From a phage, in assembly GCA_026066175.1 (NCBI GenBank), contig GCA_026066175.1_4721.1: a stretch of DNA of 64,000 nt; one strand, given 5' to 3'. Both the position numbers and the translations under genes were made by a program. The notes under the pieces were generated by a model that had not been told where the DNA came from, ran no database searches, and saw only the letters and a list, made by a program, of their open reading frames with translations. Positions 32-53,047 of the stretch are shown one piece after another. How positions within the stretch are numbered: the first letter of the stretch is position 1; every line of letters starts with the position of its first letter.

Positions 32-1786
32 TTATGCCGCTACATACCCAGGCCAACGTTCTCTTGGCCAGTTTGTTGCGCCCTGTCCAACGTTGTCCTT
101 ACCAGAAGTTACATTACTTACGTCCCAACCACTAAGATCCTGGTTAAATGCGGTGTTGTTGCGCATCATGAGGTCGATCCTACGTAACGATTGGGTATTC
201 CAGCCGGAAATGTCTTGGTTGAATGCCGCGTTGTAAGCAAACATGTTAACAACGTCTTGTAATTTTGAAGTGTTCCAGCCGCTTATATCGCTATTGAACT
301 GCATGTTCGAGAACATACTGCTAGCGTTGACAAGACTACCTGTTTTCCAGTTAACCAGCTTGTCCCCATCAAGTGCAACGCAGCTACTGAACATGTAACT
401 CATGTCGTTAACTTTGGATACATCCCATTTATCTAACCCGTTACCAACGAACTCGTAACAAGCTTGGAACATCCAGCTCATATCGGTAACCTGGCTCACA
501 TTCCATTTGCTAAAGTCGAGGTTGAGTTTTGCGCATCCGGAGAAGGTTTTATACATACTGGTGATACGACTAACATCCCATTCTTGAATGTTAGGATCAT
601 TAAGTATAGATAAGAATTTGAACAATTCGTCTAACGACGTCCATTTCTCTGGGATACGGTTTGGTACGGTACGGAGTGATGAAAGGTTACTGATTGACGG
701 AGAGCGGAACATACCGTTATCCCAATTTACGATTTCTGTAATGTTGGACCCACGGATCGTTTGGCGTCCGTTACCATTATACACAGACCCTGTTGCAGTT
801 ATTGTATATTCGTTTGTATCAGCATACGTATATTCAGCCTGTGTAGGCCACTCACCTATTACATCCCTATTCCCGTCGCCCCAATCAATGGAAATATCTA
901 TCCAGCCATCAAGATCTAGGGTAACGGTCCCGCCATTGGTCTTCAGGACGTATTTACCTGCATTGTCGGTATAATAACAAACAATCATCGCACCGTACAG
1001 GTTACCAATTTGCCAATCATCCTTTTGAGTTACCGCGATATGTGCTGTGCCACGTTGTAGGAAAAGAACCGTACGGTTCTCGTCAGTCTGTAATGTGGTT
1101 AATGCTTGAGCCTTATCATCGTCGGTAATTTCACCAGCTTCCACTAAAGCACTTAACATTCTTTCGAAGTAATCGATGGGTAATTGGCGTCCTACAGACA
1201 TATCAACTGATGGAACAGCGAGATCATCCAATGCGGCGGCAGTTGCAAGCACTAATGATCCATTGGTGGTGTCTGTTTCTTGGAGGTAATGCAGTCCCGT
1301 AATCTGGTACGCTTGAATGATTGTAATCAGATCCAGCGTATCGTTAATGACCTGTACTTGTAAATGTCCAGACCAAACATAGCTGCTTTCAGCAATCGGT
1401 AATTCGACCGACTGAATACCCGATGTTTCAAAACTGATCTTCTTATTAAGATCGGCTTCCAGGAAATCAACCGCGAGGTCGAAATTTATACCGTACTTTT
1501 CAGCGATGGAATCTATGATGTTCCTGAAAGCAACATCGGTACTTACGATGAATCGTAAAGGGATTCCTGTGAACGCATTAGCAATATCTCGACGAACATA
1601 CGTAAGTGATTGTTCGAAGAAATAGGGACTGTTATCTCCAGGTTTGATGGTTACCTGACACATTTCAGGATGTTCAACTGGGATGAACGATTCAAATTTA
1701 ACATCGGATTCCTTCAACGAAAGCATGTTCTTCCGGTTTACCAGCGCCAGAAGATCGGCTTTCCATCCAGGATAAACAGTAGACAT
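32..1786 (-). CDS. Fibre / receptor-binding-like protein with C-terminal DUF285-type repeats
   Basis: C-terminal tandem repeats of the form FNQDISGWNTS / WDVSKVNDMSYMF typical of DUF285 repeats; N-terminal ~150 aa paralogous to the N-termini of 45949-47403 and 5434-6300; start moved to MSTVYPGW (GGAGTG 5 nt upstream). Confidence 0.55.
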   Translation of the reverse strand: MSTVYPGWKADLLALVNRKNMLSLKESDVKFESFIPVEHPEMCQVTIKPGDNSPYFFEQSLTYVRRDIANAFTGIPLRFIVSTDVAFRNIIDSIAEKYGINFDLAVDFLEADLNKKISFETSGIQSVELPIAESSYVWSGHLQVQVINDTLDLITIIQAYQITGLHYLQETDTTNGSLVLATAAALDDLAVPSVDMSVGRQLPIDYFERMLSALVEAGEITDDDKAQALTTLQTDENRTVLFLQRGTAHIAVTQKDDWQIGNLYGAMIVCYYTDNAGKYVLKTNGGTVTLDLDGWIDISIDWGDGNRDVIGEWPTQAEYTYADTNEYTITATGSVYNGNGRQTIRGSNITEIVNWDNGMFRSPSISNLSSLRTVPNRIPEKWTSLDELFKFLSILNDPNIQEWDVSRITSMYKTFSGCAKLNLDFSKWNVSQVTDMSWMFQACYEFVGNGLDKWDVSKVNDMSYMFSSCVALDGDKLVNWKTGSLVNASSMFSNMQFNSDISGWNTSKLQDVVNMFAYNAAFNQDISGWNTQSLRRIDLMMRNNTAFNQDLSGWDVSNVTSGKDNVGQGATNWPRERWPGYVAA

Positions 1787-17229: not shown

Positions 17230-17735
17230 GCTAAGTTTTCCTCGTTTTCTAAGAGTCGATTACGATGACGTTTATACATTTGATGTAACGCTGTGATCTG
17301 ATAAAATTTCTTATAGCGTCTTTCAATCCGCTTCTGCACCTCTTTCCATGGGAGTTTATCGTATTGACGATAACGATGGATTTCATTTAACATGCGGAGT
17401 CGATCAGGGTCTGTGTTCTGTATCGTCCTGAGTTTGATACGCTGGTAACCGCGTTGTAACCCCGATTCAGAATACGTCACACCGAATTCATCTTGAATTA
17501 AGGTGATGATCTCCCGCCAACGTCGTTTCTCACCGTCGCGCAAATGCACGACCCGCGATAAAATATCGTTACGATTACGATGACTCAGCTTGATATTAAG
17601 CATTGAAGCGATCGCGCTTATCCCTCTCTGACTCCGTCCTAACGCTTCACCGATCTCCTTTGATGTCATGACGCCAGCGTTTCGGCGTATGAATGCGATT
17701 TCGGTTGTTGTATATTCACGGTTACCCACGATCAT
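17226..17735 (-). CDS. HTH/Myb-like DNA-binding protein, paralog 1 of 6
   Basis: YTTTEIAFIRRNAGVMTSKEIGEALGRSQRGI plus C-terminal W..I..I..EFG..Y shared with the five neighbours. Confidence 0.5.
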   Translation of the reverse strand: MIVGNREYTTTEIAFIRRNAGVMTSKEIGEALGRSQRGISAIASMLNIKLSHRNRNDILSRVVHLRDGEKRRWREIITLIQDEFGVTYSESGLQRGYQRIKLRTIQNTDPDRLRMLNEIHRYRQYDKLPWKEVQKRIERRYKKFYQITALHQMYKRHRNRLLENEENLA

Positions 17736-18190
17736 ATCACCTGATAATAATGAAGACGTTGACGTAACGTAATCGGTTTATATTGCTTTCCAAATTCCTT
17801 GTTAATAATAGAAACCGTTTCCTTCCACGTGGGTCCTTGTTCACGTAGTGTTTTCGCCCGCGTTAGCAGCCGCGTGCGTTCTGTGGTGTCATAGCGACGC
17901 AGTCCTAAACGTCTTGCTGTTGCCGCTACGCTGTCACGCGAACGGTTGAGTTGTAGAGCGATCTCTTTAAACGACAACGTTCTTATGTTTTCACTGATAA
18001 AAGCGATCTCATCTTTGGTGTACGGTTTGTTCGTACGAACGGAGGGGAATAACGCAAGTTTATTCTTTATAGCGCTTCTTGAACGATTTAGCTGTTTAGC
18101 GATTATCGCGGTTGATGGACGTGGTATCTGTTCAGCAAGACGCTCCAGGCGCTCAAACTCTTCTTTCGTCCAACGGCGCTTCTGTCCCAT
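17732..18190 (-). CDS. HTH/Myb-like DNA-binding protein, paralog 2 of 6
   Basis: WTKEEFERL...IAKQLNRSRSAI; YTKDEIAFI...KEIALQLNRSRDSV; WKETVSIINKEFGKQY. Confidence 0.5.
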   Translation of the reverse strand: MGQKRRWTKEEFERLERLAEQIPRPSTAIIAKQLNRSRSAIKNKLALFPSVRTNKPYTKDEIAFISENIRTLSFKEIALQLNRSRDSVAATARRLGLRRYDTTERTRLLTRAKTLREQGPTWKETVSIINKEFGKQYKPITLRQRLHYYQVI

Positions 18191-18662
18191 TGGCTACACT
18201 CTCCTTCTTCTTGTTAAGAAACCATCGTTGATAAACAGCATGCTTACTGTAATGTGTACCGAACACCGTGTTCACATGGTCCGCGATCACGCTCCAACGA
18301 TAGCCCTGACGGTGTTGTTCGTCAATGTAGTCCAACAATGTCTGACGGAACGTCTCTGATGTTCGATAGATTTTATTCCGCATAGCAAACAATCGAACGG
18401 TGTCGTACGGTCGATTAAGATCAATAGCGATTTCCTTTAACGTTTTGTGTTTGACGTTATCCCTTAAGTAGTTCAGCTCTCGAGTTGTAAACGGTATGCG
18501 TGTTTGTCGTCGCTGTAACGTCAATCGTCGGATACGGCTTTCGACACTATAGCGAGAGCGTTTTAAACGTTCCGCAATCTCTCTTATTGGCGTTGTGGTT
18601 TCTGTATACAGAAAAACTAACAACGTTATTTCATCGGGTTTCCAGGGCCTAATTTCCTTCAT
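18153..18662 (-). CDS. HTH/Myb-like DNA-binding protein, paralog 3 of 6
   Basis: WKPDEITLL...EIAERLKRSRYSV; FTTRELNYL...KEIAIDLNRPYDTV; WSVIADHVNTVFGTHY. Confidence 0.5.
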   Translation of the reverse strand: MKEIRPWKPDEITLLVFLYTETTTPIREIAERLKRSRYSVESRIRRLTLQRRQTRIPFTTRELNYLRDNVKHKTLKEIAIDLNRPYDTVRLFAMRNKIYRTSETFRQTLLDYIDEQHRQGYRWSVIADHVNTVFGTHYSKHAVYQRWFLNKKKESVANGTEAPLDERRV

Positions 18663-19107
18663 TGATTACTTCCCCTTCTTCCTTATTTCTCTTCTCGTGA
18701 TACCACCAACGCTGACGAACCGCTTGTTCACTCCAATCAGAGTTGAAATGTTCGTTCGCTGTGTTGGTAATTTGGTGCCAACTGTCGCCTTCTTTTAACC
18801 TTTTGTTCACAAAAGCTAAGAATGCATGCGTGTATTCTCCACAAGAGCGTCGTATGCCATGTCGGTACGCAATAGCTCTTAAACTGTTTGGATCGCGACC
18901 TAAATCTCTCGCAATCGCTTTATACGTTTTTCGAGCAATGTTTGCTCTGATATACGCTATTTCATGTGATTTGAAATATTGATACGCGCGCCGTCTTGGA
19001 ACACCCAGTCGATGTAGTCGTGCTTGAACGGCCCCGTACGTCGTCTCCATGATTTCCGCGATTTCATGAATCTTTAATCGCGGTTGCCGAAAATACAGTT
19101 TCAACAA
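18649..19107 (-). CDS. HTH/Myb-like DNA-binding protein, paralog 4 of 6
   Basis: IHEIAEIMETTYGAV; FKSHEIAYIRANIARKTYKAIARDLGRDPNSL; WHQITNTANEHF. Confidence 0.45.
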   Translation of the reverse strand: MLKLYFRQPRLKIHEIAEIMETTYGAVQARLHRLGVPRRRAYQYFKSHEIAYIRANIARKTYKAIARDLGRDPNSLRAIAYRHGIRRSCGEYTHAFLAFVNKRLKEGDSWHQITNTANEHFNSDWSEQAVRQRWWYHEKRNKEEGEVINEGN

Positions 19108-32828: not shown

Positions 32829-33692
32829 TTAGTAATAATATCTGATACGTTCGGGTTTTGCTAAAACACTCTGTTCGAATGGCCTTACATGTACGCAAAC
32901 ATCGACAGAATAATAGATACTACCATCGCCACACCATCGCATTACCACACATCCCTTTCTTGTACGAATATGGTAAAACGTCCACTGTGTTTGCCAGTTA
33001 TCGTCTGTGGATTCTTCCGTTCTTTCTTCCGCATCAAGAATCTTTTCACCGACAATATCGCTTAAATCACCATCGATATCGCTGAGATATACCGTCTCGC
33101 AACACTCACGGCTGTGGTACATTTCTACCACGTTATCGTCTTCGCGATGAAAAAGGATAGCTTTACAGTATTCCAGCTGTTCCTCGGTTATTTCTGACGC
33201 GTTAAGTAATTCGTCGTTATCAGTCACCATCCAGATATTTTTGATTACATGCCCGTCGAGCTCCTCCATTGTAAATACCTCGATATTCGGACGAACGGGT
33301 TCAGGTTGAACAATCGGAATACGAACACAACCAATTAAGGCCATCCGTCCTTTCTTTGGTCTAACCGCAAGGTAAGGTGATTTTCTTGGGTGGTTATGCA
33401 GACGTATTTCTAATTCGTCGAATTTAATCCCGTATATACCTAAGAAACGATCGAACAACCGATGAAACTCATCTGTTGCTTCTTCCAACGTTATGGCGTC
33501 TACCGTGAGTTTATGTCCCCTGAACACTCTGGTTAAATCGATAACGTCCAGTGTCTTGAAATATATTTCCGTAAGGGGATGATTTGTATTTTCCAGGTAC
33601 GTAATGGTTCTTTGAACCCAGATTTTAGGCGCAGCGCCTTTAAAACGTTTCAGGTATTTAAAGCGATAACGGGTATGATCTGATGTTATCAT
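32829..33692 (-). CDS. Hypothetical protein
   Basis: Start moved to MITSDHTRY (GAGAGGAGG upstream); the longer ORF would read through the terminator hairpin. Confidence 0.45.
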   Translation of the reverse strand: MITSDHTRYRFKYLKRFKGAAPKIWVQRTITYLENTNHPLTEIYFKTLDVIDLTRVFRGHKLTVDAITLEEATDEFHRLFDRFLGIYGIKFDELEIRLHNHPRKSPYLAVRPKKGRMALIGCVRIPIVQPEPVRPNIEVFTMEELDGHVIKNIWMVTDNDELLNASEITEEQLEYCKAILFHREDDNVVEMYHSRECCETVYLSDIDGDLSDIVGEKILDAEERTEESTDDNWQTQWTFYHIRTRKGCVVMRWCGDGSIYYSVDVCVHVRPFEQSVLAKPERIRYYY

Positions 33693-33766
33693 TTTAGCCT
33701 CCTCTCTTAGCTTCAGAGAATTCTCAAAATCCGTTAGTTTTGATAGACCGAGTAAGACGGCATAAA

Positions 33767-33787
33767 AGCCTCCCTCCATGGGAGGCT
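33767..33787 (-). terminator. GC-rich stem-loop with TTTTATGCC tail
   Basis: AGCCTCCC / GGGAGGCT; minus-strand tail TTTTATGCCG. Confidence 0.5.
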
Positions 33788-35780: not shown

Positions 35781-37094
35781 TCACTTAGACACCGCCATGC
35801 TTCGCGCTAACGCAACGTCGTACGCATCCATGATTGCGTCGCCGATAGCAGTATGACGAATCAACGGAATACCTACGTCTGGATACTCTTTGGTACCCAT
35901 GATCGATACCGGTTTGTCCTGATAGGCTGCGATCATCGAACGAATGTCCTGAACCTGGTTGTATCGGCAGATGGGTTTAAAGCCTGCTTTACGGAACCAA
36001 TACTCTAATTGAGGCCAATCGGTTTCACCGCGGGCAAGATAATAGAAGGTATCTTTACCGTAGTATTCTGTCATTTTGTCACGAATATTGTTAACGAACG
36101 CATTGACTTCAGCAATGGCTTCTTTATAGCCCATTACCTTACCATGCTGGAAACAATAATCACGTGCTTCTTTCGGTGCTTTGGTTTGCCACCACTCTAC
36201 CGTTGATTCGCTGATACGACCACCGTCAGCGATTTGACCGTGCACGTCAGGGAAGACATCAATACGCGGACCGTTAACGATGGATTCTGGATTAGCCAGA
36301 TCGAAGAACACGATACCGATTTCTAACAACACCCCGTTCTTTTCCAGACTAAGGTTCTCAACATCCAAACAGAATGCAGGCTTCTCTACCGCTAATGGCT
36401 CGAATGAATGGTTGCTGGTATCCGACTCAGCTTCGAGTTCGGTGGCGTCCAGATCGGTATCCGCAGGTTTCAGTTCTAATACAGCATTATCAAGCCCGGT
36501 TAACGAAAAATAGTCTTCGAAGAAATCGGGTACCGTCATGCCATGCAAATCGATACCACAATCTTCCATCCATTGTTTAAACTGGCACTCATCGACATCG
36601 ATCGCTAAACGGCATGGTCCGTAACGATTATCCAATGACGCATCAATCCAGAAGAAAGTGCGTATAAGTAAGTAAGGATTATGCTCCGCGATGATTTCTT
36701 GGCTAGCGTGAGCATCATACACCATTACCTGTATTATTTCCTTACGTGTGTTATACGGATCAACCATCAATCGCCGCACGACTTCTCCCAGGTATTCCAG
36801 CGCACGTGTGTACACGGTAGATCCAACTTGTCCGTACGCGCTTATACCCGTCAATAGTTCCTTATAAGACGCGTCTGAAAGCGAAGACGATAGCACACGC
36901 GCCAGCTCGGCATTGTATATACTGCATGATTTCTTCGGGGCGATAGCATCATGTAACGCTTTAATAAACGCTGGTCCATCAATATCAAACAACCATCCTT
37001 GGCGTCGGTGGGCGGTATATCGTAATAACGCACCGATAGCTGCCTGGGGTGGTGTATATTCTTTTTCGTTAATTTCAAACAGTAGTTCGCTCAT
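35781..37094 (-). CDS. Two-domain protein with C-terminal DnaQ-like 3'-5' exonuclease (DEDDh)
   Basis: Exo I FCLDVENLS (D.E), Exo III RHTAIGDAIMDAYD (H...D); ~200-aa N-terminal domain of unknown function. Confidence 0.55.
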   Translation of the reverse strand: MSELLFEINEKEYTPPQAAIGALLRYTAHRRQGWLFDIDGPAFIKALHDAIAPKKSCSIYNAELARVLSSSLSDASYKELLTGISAYGQVGSTVYTRALEYLGEVVRRLMVDPYNTRKEIIQVMVYDAHASQEIIAEHNPYLLIRTFFWIDASLDNRYGPCRLAIDVDECQFKQWMEDCGIDLHGMTVPDFFEDYFSLTGLDNAVLELKPADTDLDATELEAESDTSNHSFEPLAVEKPAFCLDVENLSLEKNGVLLEIGIVFFDLANPESIVNGPRIDVFPDVHGQIADGGRISESTVEWWQTKAPKEARDYCFQHGKVMGYKEAIAEVNAFVNNIRDKMTEYYGKDTFYYLARGETDWPQLEYWFRKAGFKPICRYNQVQDIRSMIAAYQDKPVSIMGTKEYPDVGIPLIRHTAIGDAIMDAYDVALARSMAVSK

Positions 37095-37110
37095 TTTAAC
37101 ACCTTTTTTG

Positions 37111-45948: not shown

Positions 45949-47403
45949 ATGAAAATCAAACAAAGCTGGAAAGACGAATTACTTGCATTAGTTAACAGCA
46001 AAAACAGTTTACAACTGACATTAGACGACGTAAAGTTTGAATTAACCGAACCGGTAAGCGAAGTGCCCGGAACGGTCGTTGTTACAATCAAACCGAACGA
46101 TAATAGTCGCTACTTTAACGAGCAGTCTCTGACCTACGTCCGTCGAGACATTGCTAAAAACTTCACCGGGATTCCGTTACGGGTTATCGTTAAGCAAGAT
46201 ACCGCTGTAAGGGATATCATCAATACGATTGCTGAACGTTACGGATTGGTATTTGACACAACCGTCGACTTCCTCGAATCAGAGCTGAATAAACAAATTA
46301 CTTTCGCAGACACCGGTATTAAAGACGTTACTGTTCCGGTTGCAAACACGTCTTATGTTTGGGCTGGTAATCTTCAGTTCAATATTGCGAACGATACGTT
46401 AAGCTTGATTACTATCATCAAGAAAACCAATCTTACGAATCTGGTTTATCTGGATGGTGTTGAAGCTGACACATCGGGGTCGTTACTGTTAGCCACCACA
46501 GCACTTGTTAACGATAGCGTAAATAAGCCGATGGTTGAAAACGAAGATATCGTCGATGAATTCTACAACGTTCTTAATGCTCTAGCCAAATATGGTGACA
46601 TAACTGGCGATGAATTAAATGCCGCCTTACATGCGTACGATGAAGCAGAAAACAGGAATAAAACCACGGTAATAACTCTTGGTGATATCCAGTGTGTTGC
46701 AACAGAAAAAGACGATTGGGAAATTGGACGTTTACGCGGTCAGATGGTTCTCGCGCTCAAATCCGACAAACAACCTGAGCGCGAGAACACGTTAAGGTTG
46801 TTTACGAATGGCGGTGACGTCTCACTAACGTTAAACACAATGAAAGATATCAGTATCGATTGGGGTGATGGGAATAAAGTAACGTTGGATGCTGAAGAAA
46901 GATACGCGCACCACACATACGCCGACAATAACCAGTACCAAATCGAAATTGTGTCTCGTACGGACCCAGATGTGCTGCGACCAAATTATATTTCTGGGAG
47001 TGAGATAACCGAAGTAATTCACTGGGCTACTACTTCAACAATAGCTCTGAATTTTGTTGGATGCGATAATTTAGCGACTGTTCCAGATGAGATCCCAACT
47101 TCGTGGACAACGTTGGACAGCATGTTTGAAAGTTGTACGAATTTGAATGATCCGTCTATCTCTAACTGGAATACAAGTAACATCACATCAATGAATGGTA
47201 TGTTCGGCGGATGCACTAAATTTAACCAACCTTTAGCTGCCTGGGATGTCAGCTCAGTAACTGACATTGGTGGTATGTTTGTCGGATGTGACAGTTTTAA
47301 CCAAGATTTAAGTGGGTGGCGATTACCGTCAGGAGTAAACCACACCAATTACGATGATGGTGCTTTCTCGTGGCAGACGGAACATAAACCGACATTCCAG
47401 TAA
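45949..47403 (+). CDS. Fibre / receptor-binding-like protein with C-terminal DUF285-type repeats (paralog of 32-1786)
   Basis: N-terminal ~150 aa aligns closely with 32-1786; C-terminal ITSMNGMFGGCTKFNQPLAAWDVSSVTDIGGMFVGCDSFNQDLSGW repeats. Confidence 0.6.
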   Translation: MKIKQSWKDELLALVNSKNSLQLTLDDVKFELTEPVSEVPGTVVVTIKPNDNSRYFNEQSLTYVRRDIAKNFTGIPLRVIVKQDTAVRDIINTIAERYGLVFDTTVDFLESELNKQITFADTGIKDVTVPVANTSYVWAGNLQFNIANDTLSLITIIKKTNLTNLVYLDGVEADTSGSLLLATTALVNDSVNKPMVENEDIVDEFYNVLNALAKYGDITGDELNAALHAYDEAENRNKTTVITLGDIQCVATEKDDWEIGRLRGQMVLALKSDKQPERENTLRLFTNGGDVSLTLNTMKDISIDWGDGNKVTLDAEERYAHHTYADNNQYQIEIVSRTDPDVLRPNYISGSEITEVIHWATTSTIALNFVGCDNLATVPDEIPTSWTTLDSMFESCTNLNDPSISNWNTSNITSMNGMFGGCTKFNQPLAAWDVSSVTDIGGMFVGCDSFNQDLSGWRLPSGVNHTNYDDGAFSWQTEHKPTFQ

Positions 47404-48749: not shown

Positions 48750-51011
48750 TTACAATTCGAAATCTTCATCGATAACGCGTTGGGTTAGCACCTTGTCGCT
48801 GAAGAACTCCACCTTACGTTGATGGTATTTCCGATGTGCTTCAATCGACGTACACACCAGATACCAGAACGTGGGTGTCATACCCTCGAACTTCCCTTTC
48901 AGCTGACGTAGTCGACCTAACACCTGAATGTTACCAGTTCTCGACCCCATCGCTAACGTCATGAACGTCATCACCAAGTCAGGAAGATCGATTCCTGTAC
49001 CAGCCGATTTTACCGTTGTCACACTGATATCATTATCCAGTAACACCATGAAATCTTCTTCAGCGGTATAAGGACCTATCTCCAACTCAGGGATACGTTC
49101 ACTTAAGTAATGCGATAACGACTTGCACATATCAACGGTTGCACAATACACCAACATCTTCATGCCTTCCTGATATTGGTTCATGAAACCTTTGATAATA
49201 ACCGTATAGATAAAGTTGAAATAGGCGAGTTTGAGTTGCTTATTCTTCATGATAGACTGTTCGAATACCGTGTGAGAATAAGAACCTCCAAAGCCTTTGT
49301 ATCGGACTTTATCCGTACTGCGTAGTCGATACGTCACCGCATTTACCGCGATGTATTTCTTGTATTCACATTTCGCATAACGTGCTTCTTTCGGATACAT
49401 CAAATACAGCATCCGCTCGATGAACGGATCGTCAGACACCGCCGTTGCCGACAGATAAATGATTTCCGGAATATTCGCGTAACACTTCACTTTGAACAAG
49501 AAATGCAGAGCTTCGTGACATTCATCGTGGATTAACAATCCAATGCCTGTTTTCTCCCAGAACTCGACTGGATGGAAAACATAAGGTGCGACACAGTTGT
49601 TCTTTTCATAATCGGTTATATAACGCTGAAACATGTTCAGTGAGAATAACGCAATTTTGAAATCCAACTCACCTTGTTCTACCAACGTCTGAAATTCCAA
49701 CATGCTGTAACGAGGAATGTCGGGATGCGGTGGGTCAGACTGGGCTGTACCACGTATCTCGATAACATCACCTGGTTCCATACCGAAGAAACTTAGCAGT
49801 GAGCTACGCCATCCAGGCATGTACCTCGGTGACAGAATGATGCCCGTCCGTACACCACGTCGGAAGGTGATCTCCTGCGACATTGCGGTGTTGTGCGTGA
49901 CGATATGGTCTTTAATAACATAAAGGCTTTCGTCGTTGTCCACCGTGATGCAACGTGCCTTCGCTTTCACCGTCGGCACGATGCCGCCAATCGCTAAACC
50001 AGGAAGCGTGTTAACGGGAAGATCATCTGGAATCTCAATGCCGTCAGGAATAAGCTTAAGCAAATCGGAATGGTAAATTAATGTCTCCATCGTGTAACTA
50101 TTGATGGGGCATTTATACGCGATTCCCCCTAACCGATAAGCCAACTCCCAGACCTCGGTCATTATCTGCGAATCGGTGGTTCTGACCGCAAGGTGAGCCC
50201 ACCCTTCTTCAACACGCAGCACGCAACGATCTTTGATGAGTTCTCTGAAACGATCAAGACCCACGAGTTCTTTCGGTTCGTAAAGTCGGATTCTTACCGG
50301 ACGAGATCGTGACGATCTGTCATTAAGACGTTCCATGATTTCACTCGTGCTGAGCACCTTGTCAGGATCCGTGCATTGCCAGAGATGATCACCACACGCT
50401 TCAACCATTCGTCCATCTTCAAAGAAGACAGCGTAAAGCTGAATATCGTCATGATCAAAGATAGCAGTTACGTTCGTCGGTAAACCATCCGCGCCGATGA
50501 CCTCATCACCCACCTGGAGCTCACCAATCGGCTTCCAACCGCTTGGAACCTTAACGGGTGTATGGAGAGCCAATGCTTTCCCAGACCCCGTGCCTGCGGT
50601 GTTTAGGCTCATTCTGAAAGGGGTATCCTTACCCCCATCCATGTACTCCAACCATTCTTGCTGATCTTCACGCCACGGAAACTTCCAGTTCTTCACAAAC
50701 TCCACTTCCTTACCTGGAACCGGATCGTGGTAAACGATTTCCAACCACTCCTTTCGAATTCCTCGAGAAAAGATAAAATCCAAAAACGACTTCAGCTGTT
50801 CACGAAGTAAGTAGACCTCGCTATAATCGCTTCTTGCTGCGGCGTAGGTGTTGATGGTATCGGTGACCATTCTCCGTGTACGAGGGTCGCGTCGTTTCCG
50901 TAGATGCAAACAACGGTCTCGAAGGTAATGGCCAATCAAATGGGCAAATCGAAGTCCGTATCCGCTCAGCTTCATGCCATGCGAGAAGACGTCGATACGA
51001 GCTAACTTCAT
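48750..51011 (-). CDS. SF2 (DExH) helicase carrying an intein-like insertion in motif I
   Basis: Host motifs NTAGTGSGK | T (AGTGSGKT after excision), LLIHDECHEA, YLSATA, SAGTGIDLPDLV; about 229 aa inserted between K and T. Confidence 0.65.
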   Translation of the reverse strand: MKLARIDVFSHGMKLSGYGLRFAHLIGHYLRDRCLHLRKRRDPRTRRMVTDTINTYAAARSDYSEVYLLREQLKSFLDFIFSRGIRKEWLEIVYHDPVPGKEVEFVKNWKFPWREDQQEWLEYMDGGKDTPFRMSLNTAGTGSGKALALHTPVKVPSGWKPIGELQVGDEVIGADGLPTNVTAIFDHDDIQLYAVFFEDGRMVEACGDHLWQCTDPDKVLSTSEIMERLNDRSSRSRPVRIRLYEPKELVGLDRFRELIKDRCVLRVEEGWAHLAVRTTDSQIMTEVWELAYRLGGIAYKCPINSYTMETLIYHSDLLKLIPDGIEIPDDLPVNTLPGLAIGGIVPTVKAKARCITVDNDESLYVIKDHIVTHNTAMSQEITFRRGVRTGIILSPRYMPGWRSSLLSFFGMEPGDVIEIRGTAQSDPPHPDIPRYSMLEFQTLVEQGELDFKIALFSLNMFQRYITDYEKNNCVAPYVFHPVEFWEKTGIGLLIHDECHEALHFLFKVKCYANIPEIIYLSATAVSDDPFIERMLYLMYPKEARYAKCEYKKYIAVNAVTYRLRSTDKVRYKGFGGSYSHTVFEQSIMKNKQLKLAYFNFIYTVIIKGFMNQYQEGMKMLVYCATVDMCKSLSHYLSERIPELEIGPYTAEEDFMVLLDNDISVTTVKSAGTGIDLPDLVMTFMTLAMGSRTGNIQVLGRLRQLKGKFEGMTPTFWYLVCTSIEAHRKYHQRKVEFFSDKVLTQRVIDEDFEL
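49890..50576 (-). mobile_element. Intein-like element inside helicase motif I (protein residues ~146-374)
   Basis: Begins ALALHTPVKVPSGWKPIGELQVGDEV and ends CITVDNDESLYVIKDHIVTHN followed by Thr; removing it restores AGTGSGKT. Confidence 0.55.
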
Positions 51012-53047
51012 AACGTGATTACATCCTCCGGTTTAGGTTCTTTACGCGGTAGAAGCATGTAGTCGATCGGATGATCTGGCTTCATGGTTGGGATATAACT
51101 GTTCGGGTTTTGGAACGCATCCAGTTGCTCTTGGTGAGCGAACTTCATACTCAAGGAGCGCATGTTCATGTTCTTCTTGAAGGTACTGAAATAACGAGTC
51201 GTTCCCTGTTTCGGCATGCGGTAATCTTTCGTGTGTGGTGAACGAATCATACTCGCGTAGAGAATAACGTCCAGATGCGATAGATTCATTCGTAAACGTT
51301 GCGCACACAGACGATGCCAATAATACAGTACGTTGGCTACTTCTTCTGGTGTCGCTTCATCTTCCGAAAGGAATCCTGCACTGAACGAACCTTTCCCGAA
51401 TTTGAATTCACGTTCGATTTCTTTTGCGTATTCCATCATGTTTTTATGGATGAGTGGCATCTGGAATAGCGTCCGTGAATTGTCCCAATGTTTCAAGTCG
51501 AAGATCACAATCCCGTCTGCTGTTACTTCCCAGCTATGGCGTTTGAGATAACGGATAAACGCTTTGCTTGGTACAACAGGACGTCCACAGAAATCGAAAT
51601 TGACTTTGAGTTTACGATAGCTCTCATCTTTCCTGTCGTAAATCTCCATATCGCAAAGCGTCATGTTGAACAGACGTTGCGGGATAAGCGAACTGATCTC
51701 TTCCGCTTCAGCTACATCGTACAACATGTTCGCCAGACCGAGTTTCATCTTAATCAGCACGTGTTTGCCTTTCAGCTCACGGGCTAATTTGATGTCGTTC
51801 ATGTTCTGGCTGTAACGAAGGATATGTTGATATTCCGGCGGGATTGGTGACGTAGACACGGTGGACGAACCATCGTGATGTTTGGTCGAAAGAATGTTCT
51901 GGGTAACCTGTTGTGAACCTGTACGTGCTGAGCAGTCTCCGATGTTGTCGGTCAATGCAAAGTTATGGCTTAATTCACCATAGCACGTTGCACAGACACC
52001 AGCAGGATCAGAATGATGACAGTAACAAACGGAACGCATGTTCACAATGGTACCGATCAATTCTTTCATGTGAGGCTGTATCGACAACAGCGAACCATCT
52101 TCACGTAAGATGAATCGACCGTGGAAACCTTTAAGATCGGTTTCATCACGTATCGGCATCGGAATGGTTTCTCTGCTTCCACAATCACCAGGATGCAGAC
52201 GTTGTACAACCGCCGTTGCGATTTGCAGCTCACGTCCGAAATATTCTGACTTCTTAATCTGCTCCTTGTTGAACAACAAAGATTTTGCCGCAGAGCGACT
52301 TTCTTTTAAGCTGTCCGGAAGCGAGATCAAGCCTGCTGCATACGAGCGCATCACTGGGTCACGGAAGATCTCCGAGTTGATATCGGTTAAGAAACCACGC
52401 ATCCCAATACACTGCAATACCTGTCCGATTGACACGTGTTCGGTTCTTACCGCACGTGCGATCGGGTTGGCATGCAATGTTTTATCGGTACTTAAAACTT
52501 TTGTTAGTTTCTTGTATGCGCTCTCAATACCTTCGCGGGTGGGTTCCGCTTCAGCGATGATTTTCTTCACTTCGGGATGTACGGTAATCTGATAAAAATC
52601 ATCCGCACAGATGGTCGTTACGTATTCCTCCAACGCATACGTAAAGAAGTTATAAACGTGGTTAAACATATCGAACAACGCTTTCCAGAGAACCTCACGA
52701 TTCTCTTGCGGATACGCATACATGCATTGACGATAGGCTGCGCTTTGTAATGCAACGGAAGAACCTGCCGTAAACTTGCGTTTATCCACCAGGTTCTCTT
52801 TCGTTAACGGTGTCTCAGGATACATGCGATGTAAAGACCAATGCATGTAGCTAAAGAAAATGCGTCGCGCACGCAATTCATGAACACCATCGTCCATCTC
52901 GATATACACACGGTCATTAGGCTGTGCCCACTCGAACACCTCATCAACCGGCCAATGCATAAGCTCTCGCGCCCGTACACGGCGTTTCGTGGTGATCGTC
53001 TGTACTGTATTCATTATTTTTACTTTCCGATTAAGTGGTTTTATCAT
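51008..53047 (-). CDS. Large hypothetical protein with a Cys cluster
   Basis: 679-aa ORF, ATGA-coupled to the helicase gene; CYCHHSDPAGVCATCYG; no family recognised. Confidence 0.5.
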   Translation of the reverse strand: MIKPLNRKVKIMNTVQTITTKRRVRARELMHWPVDEVFEWAQPNDRVYIEMDDGVHELRARRIFFSYMHWSLHRMYPETPLTKENLVDKRKFTAGSSVALQSAAYRQCMYAYPQENREVLWKALFDMFNHVYNFFTYALEEYVTTICADDFYQITVHPEVKKIIAEAEPTREGIESAYKKLTKVLSTDKTLHANPIARAVRTEHVSIGQVLQCIGMRGFLTDINSEIFRDPVMRSYAAGLISLPDSLKESRSAAKSLLFNKEQIKKSEYFGRELQIATAVVQRLHPGDCGSRETIPMPIRDETDLKGFHGRFILREDGSLLSIQPHMKELIGTIVNMRSVCYCHHSDPAGVCATCYGELSHNFALTDNIGDCSARTGSQQVTQNILSTKHHDGSSTVSTSPIPPEYQHILRYSQNMNDIKLARELKGKHVLIKMKLGLANMLYDVAEAEEISSLIPQRLFNMTLCDMEIYDRKDESYRKLKVNFDFCGRPVVPSKAFIRYLKRHSWEVTADGIVIFDLKHWDNSRTLFQMPLIHKNMMEYAKEIEREFKFGKGSFSAGFLSEDEATPEEVANVLYYWHRLCAQRLRMNLSHLDVILYASMIRSPHTKDYRMPKQGTTRYFSTFKKNMNMRSLSMKFAHQEQLDAFQNPNSYIPTMKPDHPIDYMLLPRKEPKPEDVITL

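Follow-up and report, generated by a model that had tools for sequence, protein, structure and literature searches.

A predicted class 3 intein in the Walker A motif of a core helicase of a Goslar-like jumbo phage

Class 3 inteins, as defined by Tori et al., carry a non-nucleophilic residue at position 1, together with Trp B:12, Cys F:4, Thr G:5 and a Thr or Ser at position +1 (PMC2807308). In these inteins the block F Cys serves as the first nucleophile and is directed at the N-terminal junction; from there the N-extein moves on to Thr+1, and ligation is finished by Asn cyclisation followed by an acyl shift (PMC2807308). The block F Cys is obligate and gives rise to a branched intermediate, a feature examined in the MP-Be DnaB intein by mutation of this Cys to Ala and detection of the thiol-labile species (PMC2807308). 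Reports of such inteins within P-loops of helicases and terminases encoded by phages date back to 2010, and a phage origin has been proposed for them (PMC2807308, PMC5050341). The Lys-Thr junction of Walker A (K|T) is referred to as the ‘classic’ P-loop intein insertion site (PMC5050341). Here we analyse a 229-residue insert in a superfamily 2 (SF2) helicase gene (48750..51011) of a 64,000-nucleotide phage contig, GCA_026066175.1_4721.1 (assembly GCA_026066175.1), the whole of which is referred to below as the window. The insert is very probably a class 3 intein, named WCT after its Trp-Cys-Thr triplet, situated at the K|T P-loop site of a conserved SF2 helicase that is encoded by a nucleus-forming jumbo phage akin to Goslar, and its splicing is predicted from the residues that it carries.

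A first-pass annotation made from the letters alone had proposed an intein-like insertion within motif I of a helicase at this locus, and the corresponding open reading frame (ORF) does exist on the minus strand, encoding a protein of 753 residues. When 50,697 phage genomes were searched by megablast with the gene, Escherichia phage vB_EcoM_Goslar was the sole match, in two pieces that together covered 69% of the query with 92.3% identity and spanned 1575 nucleotides in Goslar. The product of the matching Goslar gene, gp164, is annotated as ‘DNA helicase’ and comprises 524 residues; its pairwise alignment with the window protein contains a single gap corresponding exactly to window-protein residues 146–374, outside of which 521 of 524 residues are identical (99.4%) without any further gap. 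At the DNA level, the match between the window and the colinear Goslar region ends at position 49892 and restarts at 50574, and the intein-free Goslar gp164 reads GGGTCTGGTAAA|ACAGCCATGTCG at the insertion point. The insert (ALALHTPV...IVTHN) follows ...NTAGTGSGK and precedes Thr, and thus lies between the Lys and the Thr of Walker A (GSGK|T), so that excision of residues 146–374 leaves a 524-residue protein with an intact GTGSGKT. Goslar gp164 is the intein-free allele, and it proves both boundaries to the residue. The approximate limits that had been suggested (~146–374) hence turned out to be exact, the AGTGSGKT expected upon excision is indeed restored in a product that equals Goslar gp164 at all but three positions, and the helicase does resume after the insert with the DECH and SAT motifs that had been read there. 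The comparison with an intein-free homologue that had been recommended is provided by gp164 itself, which lacks the insert. A contiguous domain at this site in homologous helicases had been named beforehand as the finding that would speak against an intein; instead, tblastn with the intein-free helicase detected it in 289 phage records, and in 165 of these the helicase is uninterrupted over at least 80% of its length.

The SF2 motif set of the host protein is complete, with GTGSGK|T (Walker A, motif I), DECH (motif II), SAT (motif III) and QVLGRLRQ (motif VI). It matches phrog_16 DNA helicase (E=2.5e-24) and shows a weak XPB-like match (E=1.5e-6), and the scores of the Pfam helicase domains remained below threshold. 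The host helicase has its orthologs in Goslar gp164 and Erwinia phage RAY gp250, the latter being a core gene of chimallin-encoding phages whose product is located inside the phage nucleus (PMC10299810). As the whole window is colinear with the Goslar genome from ~103.5 to 162.5 kb, at 72–88% nucleotide identity, it derives from a Goslar-like nucleus-forming jumbo phage. Recent work has recovered many phages of this kind from genome assemblies of Salmonella, E. coli and Shigella, and it covers 237 Goslarvirus genomes (PMC12768965).

When the insert was compared by phmmer with all PDB sequences, the best matches were the class 3 DnaB mini-inteins of Mycobacterium chimaera (6RIX, E=1.3e-13; 6RIY, E=2.8e-13) and M. 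smegmatis (6BS8, E=6e-13), in an alignment that begins at residue 1 (ALALHTPVKVPSGW versus ALALYTPLPTPTGW) and resumes at RCITVDNDESLYV...THN versus RCVEVDNPAHLYL...THN. Among 1.84 billion representative proteins searched exhaustively with HMMER, 10,086 relatives of the insert were found at E<=0.001, so that the resemblance to inteins lies far outside what chance would give; this search superseded a word-indexed protein search with the intein alone, which had given one partial and uninformative match. The NCBIfam model TIGR01443 (intein_Cterm), which describes the C-terminal splicing region, recognized residues 352–375 with 15.9 bits against a cut-off of 15.6. The intein was further modelled with AlphaFold2 on an alignment of 31 related mini-inteins, which resulted in a mean predicted local distance difference test score (pLDDT) of 96.1 and a predicted template modelling (TM) score of 0.90. 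In a Foldseek comparison with the PDB, the top seven matches were all class 3 DnaB intein chains (6rix/6riy/6bs8), with TM scores of 0.83–0.87 normalised to the target, and PI-SceI and many other inteins ranked below them; 54 PDB matches were obtained at E<=0.001, and the 50 listed were inteins, bacterial intein-like domains or the hedgehog autoprocessing domain. All features of a HINT-type intein, namely blocks A, B, F and G, the C-terminal His-Asn and a nucleophilic +1 residue, are present in the insert. A bacterial intein-like or other non-ligating Hint domain was also considered and was rejected, because the insert ends in His-Asn, is followed by Thr and, once removed, leaves GSGKT exactly restored, as fits a true intein. 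A search of the 64-kb window with hidden Markov models of the N- and C-terminal splicing regions revealed no further inteins.

The first residue of the insert is Ala, from which an alternative splicing mechanism had been surmised if the boundary was right. This fits class 3, the pathway of which has already been described and named (PMC2807308), as the WCT residues are in place. The window intein carries the whole class 3 signature, i.e. Ala1, Trp66, Cys209, Thr227-His228-Asn229 and Thr+1, and the spacing within block B is 61/64/66 as compared with 62/65/67 (Ser62/His65/Trp67) in the MP-Be DnaB intein. Conservation of these positions was counted in 184 inteins that were extracted from the 150 best database matches and aligned over their splicing regions, counts out of 185 including the window intein. 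Residue 1 is Ala in 109 and Pro in 25 of the 184 related inteins and Cys in only five, and residue +1 is Thr in 138 and Ser in 40 (178/184 Thr or Ser). The block F Cys and the terminal Asn of block G are found in all 185 sequences; the block B His and Trp are found in 184/185 and 181/185, respectively, and the block G Thr and His in 182/185 and 181/185. Furthermore, a P-loop xGK precedes most of the 184 related inteins. All the sequence and structure features examined thus fit class 3, with the block F Cys as the predicted first nucleophile. Class 2 (KlbA-type), which was considered on account of Ala1, was ruled out by the Thr+1 and the presence of the WCT triplet. Taken together, the intein-free allele, the class 3 residues and the class 3 DnaB structures as closest relatives bear out the proposed intein in motif I of the SF2 helicase.

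Intein residues 1–5 (50562..50576) are hypervariable among close variants, in which ALALH, AVRLT, AIPLN and CLEIS were read. The variant with Cys1 (protein P0007, L009 1501–3762, from a Salmonella Panama assembly) keeps the full WCT triplet, so that, as far as the predicted proteins indicate, a natural Ala1/Cys1 polymorphism appears to occur within one class 3 intein lineage.

Since residue 1 is Ala, splicing cannot begin at this residue. If the MP-Be DnaB, Msm DnaBi1 and Mch DnaB1 inteins are taken as a guide, Cys209, aided by His64 and Trp66, would attack the Lys145-Ala146 bond to give a thioester branched intermediate, upon which the N-extein would be transferred to Thr+1, cyclisation of Asn229 would free the intein and an O-to-N acyl shift would produce the 524-residue helicase with its intact GTGSGKT. 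As the ATP-binding loop is split in the precursor, the 753-residue protein is probably inactive as an ATPase. We infer that splicing occurs, that its chemical steps follow this order and that the endonuclease discussed below is dead.

The central part of the insert (~120 residues) had been regarded as too short for a typical LAGLIDADG endonuclease, and this was correct, as it probably corresponds to one half-domain remnant as against the full domain of the related intein in Erwinia phage Rebecca. The Rebecca intein possesses two LAGLIDADG motifs (FGAMLGDGGF and LLQGLLDTDGTV) and scores 41 bits with Pfam LAGLIDADG_3 (cut-off 22.5), whereas a four-way alignment indicated that the window intein is without ~105 residues, the first motif among them. 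What remains of the centre of the window intein can be aligned to the second Rebecca half-domain (...FRELIKDRCVLRV... versus ...LLQGLLDTDGTVQ...; WELAYRLGGIAYK versus QYLVRSIGGIAAI), and a profile of 23 central regions matches residues 312–369 of PI-SceI, the region of its second LAGLIDADG motif, with E=0.002. Modelled alone (pLDDT 85.8), the central region forms a helix-strand-strand-helix-strand-strand arrangement, to which a short helix is added in the whole-intein model (the reference fold of a LAGLIDADG half-domain being alpha-beta-beta-alpha-beta-beta-alpha), and its best, albeit weak, PDB folds (Foldseek E 0.02–0.2) are PI-SceI, I-DmoI, I-Vdi141I, I-AniI and the LAGLIDADG domain of WhiA. 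No LAGLIDADG match was returned when the insert was scanned with Pfam. With moderate confidence, we consider the central region to be a single LAGLIDADG half-domain remnant from which the first half-domain has been deleted. Neither two acid-ended LAGLIDADG motifs nor one per subunit of a homodimer are present in the window intein, and because the sole acidic residue with which the motif helix ends (the Asp of ELIKDRC) is not conserved, being Gly in close variants (KGRC), an active endonuclease is unlikely. With the first half deleted and the catalytic acid lost, the window intein has probably lost the ability to move by itself, and its central 120 residues would represent the leftover of a LAGLIDADG homing endonuclease. 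The element is most likely a fixed passenger, which survives because imprecise loss would destroy an essential gene. A variant of the central domain, 75% identical to that of the window, is encoded by P0031 (129 residues, partial) on a Salmonella Enteritidis contig of 454 bp, and its divergence would reflect a rapid divergence of the endonuclease remnant within the lineage.

Selection was assessed from the ratio of non-synonymous to synonymous substitution rates (dN/dS), calculated according to Nei-Gojobori between the window gene and one variant allele (L007). Values of 0.045 and 0.017 were obtained for the N- and the C-extein, respectively, 0.028 for intein residues 6–72 constituting the N-terminal splicing domain, 0.115 for the C-terminal splicing region and 0.36 for the central remnant; intein residues 1–5 gave 0.60, a value that derives from five codons only. 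The dN/dS of the exteins between window and Goslar was 0.011. The splicing domains are thus constrained as strongly as the host protein and are under strong purifying selection, as would be expected if failure to splice were to kill an important gene. Likewise, the W, C, T, H, N and T+1 residues are invariant across the 12 other full-length (753-residue) cluster members listed, and in 11 of these 12 variants the central region differs from that of the window at 25–30 of 124 positions, in comparison with 10–14 of 379 in the C-extein.

The 90%-identity cluster that contains the exact window protein holds 158 sequences, on contigs of up to ~248 kb, and the intein was found in all 15 members listed. 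The named members originate from Salmonella and E. coli assemblies and are labelled ‘hypothetical protein’, probably because the intein falls short of the thresholds of the Pfam Hint models. Goslar gp164 belongs to a second cluster, of 140 sequences, in which the full-length members listed have the intein-free 524-residue form. In Rebecca, Proteus phage 10, Salmonella phage SA002 and others, the tblastn match to the intein-free helicase starts only from around residue 155 onward; the close relatives of Rebecca (RAY, Ea35-70, Simmy50 and others) have no intein in the helicase, and many metagenomic helicases of 700–800 residues also carry an intein at the same site. Within the family the intein thus occurs here and there at a single conserved position, a pattern typical of homing inteins and of the decayed elements that descend from them. 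When the extein DNA flanking the insertion was compared between window and Goslar, no signal of a co-conversion or homing footprint was obtained; the differences are evenly spread (~7.7%), with three synonymous changes within 12 nucleotides of the insertion site. No free-standing homing endonuclease was found near the helicase, the flanking genes being the same as in Goslar.

Related class 3 inteins occupy up to four places per jumbo-phage genome, for example in Pseudomonas phage EL, Vibrio phage phiKT1028 and Aeromonas phage PS1, and the genes that hold them are annotated as helicase, terminase large subunit or DarB-like antirestriction protein. Several orthologous helicases themselves bear the label ‘terminase large subunit’, probably owing to the prevalence of intein-containing terminases among the database matches.

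Several observations weigh against the interpretation of the insert as a splicing class 3 intein with a dead endonuclease. The splicing activity is predicted from conservation, and the Pfam Hint models remain sub-threshold on the insert (E 0.007–0.03), with the result that standard domain annotation misses the intein. The LAGLIDADG assignment was obtained from low scores (the profile and Foldseek matches given above) and one Rebecca alignment, and the dN/dS of the central domain is relaxed and not neutral, so that a role such as folding support is possible. Finally, the near-even presence and absence of the intein among Goslar-like phages is not explained by current homing if the endonuclease is dead. 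That both alleles are common in one phage lineage would be accounted for if the intein were still mobile, either with the half-LAGLIDADG acting as a homodimeric endonuclease in the style of I-CreI or with a nuclease driving homing in trans, and the good folding of the central domain (pLDDT 86–96) together with its non-neutral dN/dS points in the same direction. Continued mobility is nevertheless very improbable in our view, given the replacement of the sole motif-helix acid by Gly in close variants, the failure of Pfam to detect LAGLIDADG, the lack of any extra nuclease gene beside the helicase relative to Goslar and the absence of excess divergence or co-conversion around the insertion site. 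We hold it to be just as improbable that the insert is a decayed pseudo-intein that does not splice, leaving the helicase dead or working with the insert in place. Its homing endonuclease shows clear signs of degeneration, and class 3 intein pseudogenes such as Arth_1007 do exist (PMC3196547), but all catalytic residues of the window intein are intact and invariant across variants, and the dN/dS of its splicing domains (0.028–0.115) is similar to that of the exteins; moreover, the Walker A motif that it interrupts belongs to a core chimallivirus gene, and the very strong constraint on the exteins of this gene relative to Goslar would be unexpected for a dead protein.

The M. smegmatis DnaBi1 intein, which likewise resides in a helicase P-loop, is reversibly inhibited by H2O2 through a disulfide with its catalytic Cys, and conditional splicing has been proposed for it (PMC6195587). 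As this redox-inhibited intein is the closest solved relative, the window intein might also be conditional, its splicing being tuned by the redox state of Cys209 or another cue so that the helicase is switched on only under permissive conditions. Additional Cys residues are available in the window intein, with Cys61 (B:7) and Cys68 in or beside block B and others in the central domain, and a Cys at B:7 was present in 80/185 related inteins. We give this reading only a small chance, since the present data contain no signal of regulation, the Cys48 that serves as partner in Msm DnaBi1 is reported not to be conserved (PMC6195587), and Goslar and about half of its relatives are without the intein, which is hence not needed for the phage life cycle. 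A more elaborate proposal, in which the intein is a post-translational switch with Cys209, possibly together with Cys61 or Cys68, being sensitive to redox state or compartment, and with the half-LAGLIDADG newly recruited, for example for DNA binding or docking, strikes us as slightly less probable still; if true, activation of the nucleus-localised core helicase would be timed to a stage of chimallivirus infection, e.g. before or after import into the phage nucleus. The reading as a class 3 intein that splices and has lost its endonuclease is the one retained in the feature assignments of Table 1.

Table 1. Features assigned to the helicase precursor gene and its intein, in order of the encoded protein
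Feature	Position in window	Strand	Basis or remark
SF2 helicase precursor gene with predicted intein	48750..51011	-	ORF list; ATG start; 753 aa (amino acids) + stop
N-extein, aa 1–145	50577..51011	-	Colinear with Goslar gp164 residues 1–145
First part of Walker A, TAGTGSGK, end of N-extein	50577..50600	-	Direct reading
Class 3 intein (highly probable), 229 aa, protein residues 146–374	49890..50576	-	Absent from Goslar gp164; PDB phmmer; AlphaFold2 model; Foldseek
Intein block A (ALALHTPVKVPSG); residue 1 = Ala, non-nucleophile	50538..50576	-	Aligns from residue 1 with ALALYTPLPTPTG of 6RIX
Intein block B (GRMVEACGDHLWQC)	50373..50414	-	His64 50385..50387; WCT Trp66 50379..50381
Central domain, intein residues 72–193, putative folded second LAGLIDADG half-domain remnant	49998..50363	-	Rebecca alignment; PI-SceI profile match
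Intein block F (KARCITVDNDESLYVI)	49914..49961	-	WCT Cys209 49950..49952, predicted first nucleophile
Intein block G + residue +1 (DHIVTHN|T)	49887..49910	-	WCT Thr227, His228, Asn229 (49890..49892)
Thr+1 (Thr375), also Thr of Walker A	49887..49889	-	Direct reading
C-extein, aa 375–753 + stop	48750..49889	-	Colinear with Goslar gp164 residues 146–524
DECH, helicase aa 496–499	49515..49526	-	Direct reading
SAT, helicase aa 521–523	49443..49451	-	Direct reading
Motif VI QVLGRLRQ, helicase aa 696–703	48903..48926	-	Direct reading

Upstream of the helicase lies a gene for an RNA polymerase beta subunit fragment (51008..53047, minus strand; phrog_3015, E=9e-170), the stop codon of which overlaps the helicase start codon (ATGA), and this pairing of RNA polymerase and helicase genes is conserved in Goslar, EL and Rebecca. 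Elsewhere in the window, a 316-residue ORF (32829..33779, minus strand) has no Goslar counterpart, as the Goslar alignment skips from 132925 to 132928 across ~880 nucleotides of the window; phrog_2650 (E=1e-22), the function of which is unknown, was its sole match. At window positions 17717..19031, 36391..37107 and 46499..47158, the blastn alignment with the colinear Goslar genome is interrupted while the spacing is kept, and these three stretches look like replaced or highly diverged segments. The last of the breaks falls inside a gene matching Goslar gp161, a BspA-like leucine-rich repeat protein. Window positions 1443..1765 match part of Goslar gp161 (145152..145477) in reverse orientation with 66% identity, which suggests a second, diverged paralogue of this BspA-like gene near the window start.

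The window intein is a new, previously unannotated instance of a well-known class 3 type, and in the literature searched no mention was found of an intein in Goslar-like phages or in the chimallivirus helicase. For annotation, its recognition means that a ‘hypothetical protein’ would be the precursor of the 524-residue core helicase of nucleus-forming jumbo phages, as judged from the predicted splicing. The locus further offers a natural pair of intein-plus and intein-minus alleles within one phage lineage, as well as a decay series for study that extends from a full endonuclease (Rebecca) through a half-domain remnant (window, EL) to none (Goslar). A compact, confidently modelled class 3 intein with Thr+1 is added to the protein-engineering toolbox, and knowledge of the splicing mechanism itself remains unchanged. 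Of mild interest are the plus/minus polymorphism, the half-endonuclease remnant, the hypervariable first five residues and the host, a core protein targeted to the phage nucleus.

Among the known systems, the DnaB inteins of M. chimaera (MchDnaB1, 6RIX/6RIY), M. smegmatis (Msm DnaBi1, 6BS8) and mycobacteriophage Bethlehem, the last being the prototype, start with a non-nucleophile as does the window intein, and the two mycobacterial ones begin with the same ALAL. These class 3 DnaB inteins share with the window intein the WCT triplet, the THN end, the Thr or Ser at +1, the helicase P-loop site and the HINT fold, in spite of only ~20% identity over the structural alignment. They differ in their host, which is the DnaB replicative helicase as opposed to the SF2 helicase of the window, and in their centre, as the mycobacterial mini-inteins have a short disordered linker in place of the folded 120-residue putative endonuclease remnant.

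Closer in host and site are the inteins of Pseudomonas phage EL gp040 and Erwinia phage Rebecca gp251 (860 residues), which lie at the same GK|T site of orthologous helicases, carry the same WCT signature and show 31–41% identity to the window intein by tblastn. The EL gp040 intein is a mini-intein, and that of Rebecca, with both LAGLIDADG motifs, may still be mobile, in contrast to the window intein which is without the first motif; in the EL and Rebecca records the entire ORF is annotated simply as helicase. Several inteins of phage EL are reportedly listed in InBase. PI-SceI (the Sce VMA1 intein) consists of a HINT domain with an inserted LAGLIDADG domain, an arrangement that the window intein probably shares in reduced form, but it is a class 1 intein (Cys1) with two half-domains and catalytic aspartates, whereas the window intein would retain one half-domain and has no conserved acid. 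The class 2 (KlbA) inteins resemble the window intein in having Ala1, so that the standard first acyl shift is impossible in both; they lack the WCT triplet and their Cys+1 attacks the N-terminal junction directly, whereas the window intein combines the WCT triplet with Thr+1.

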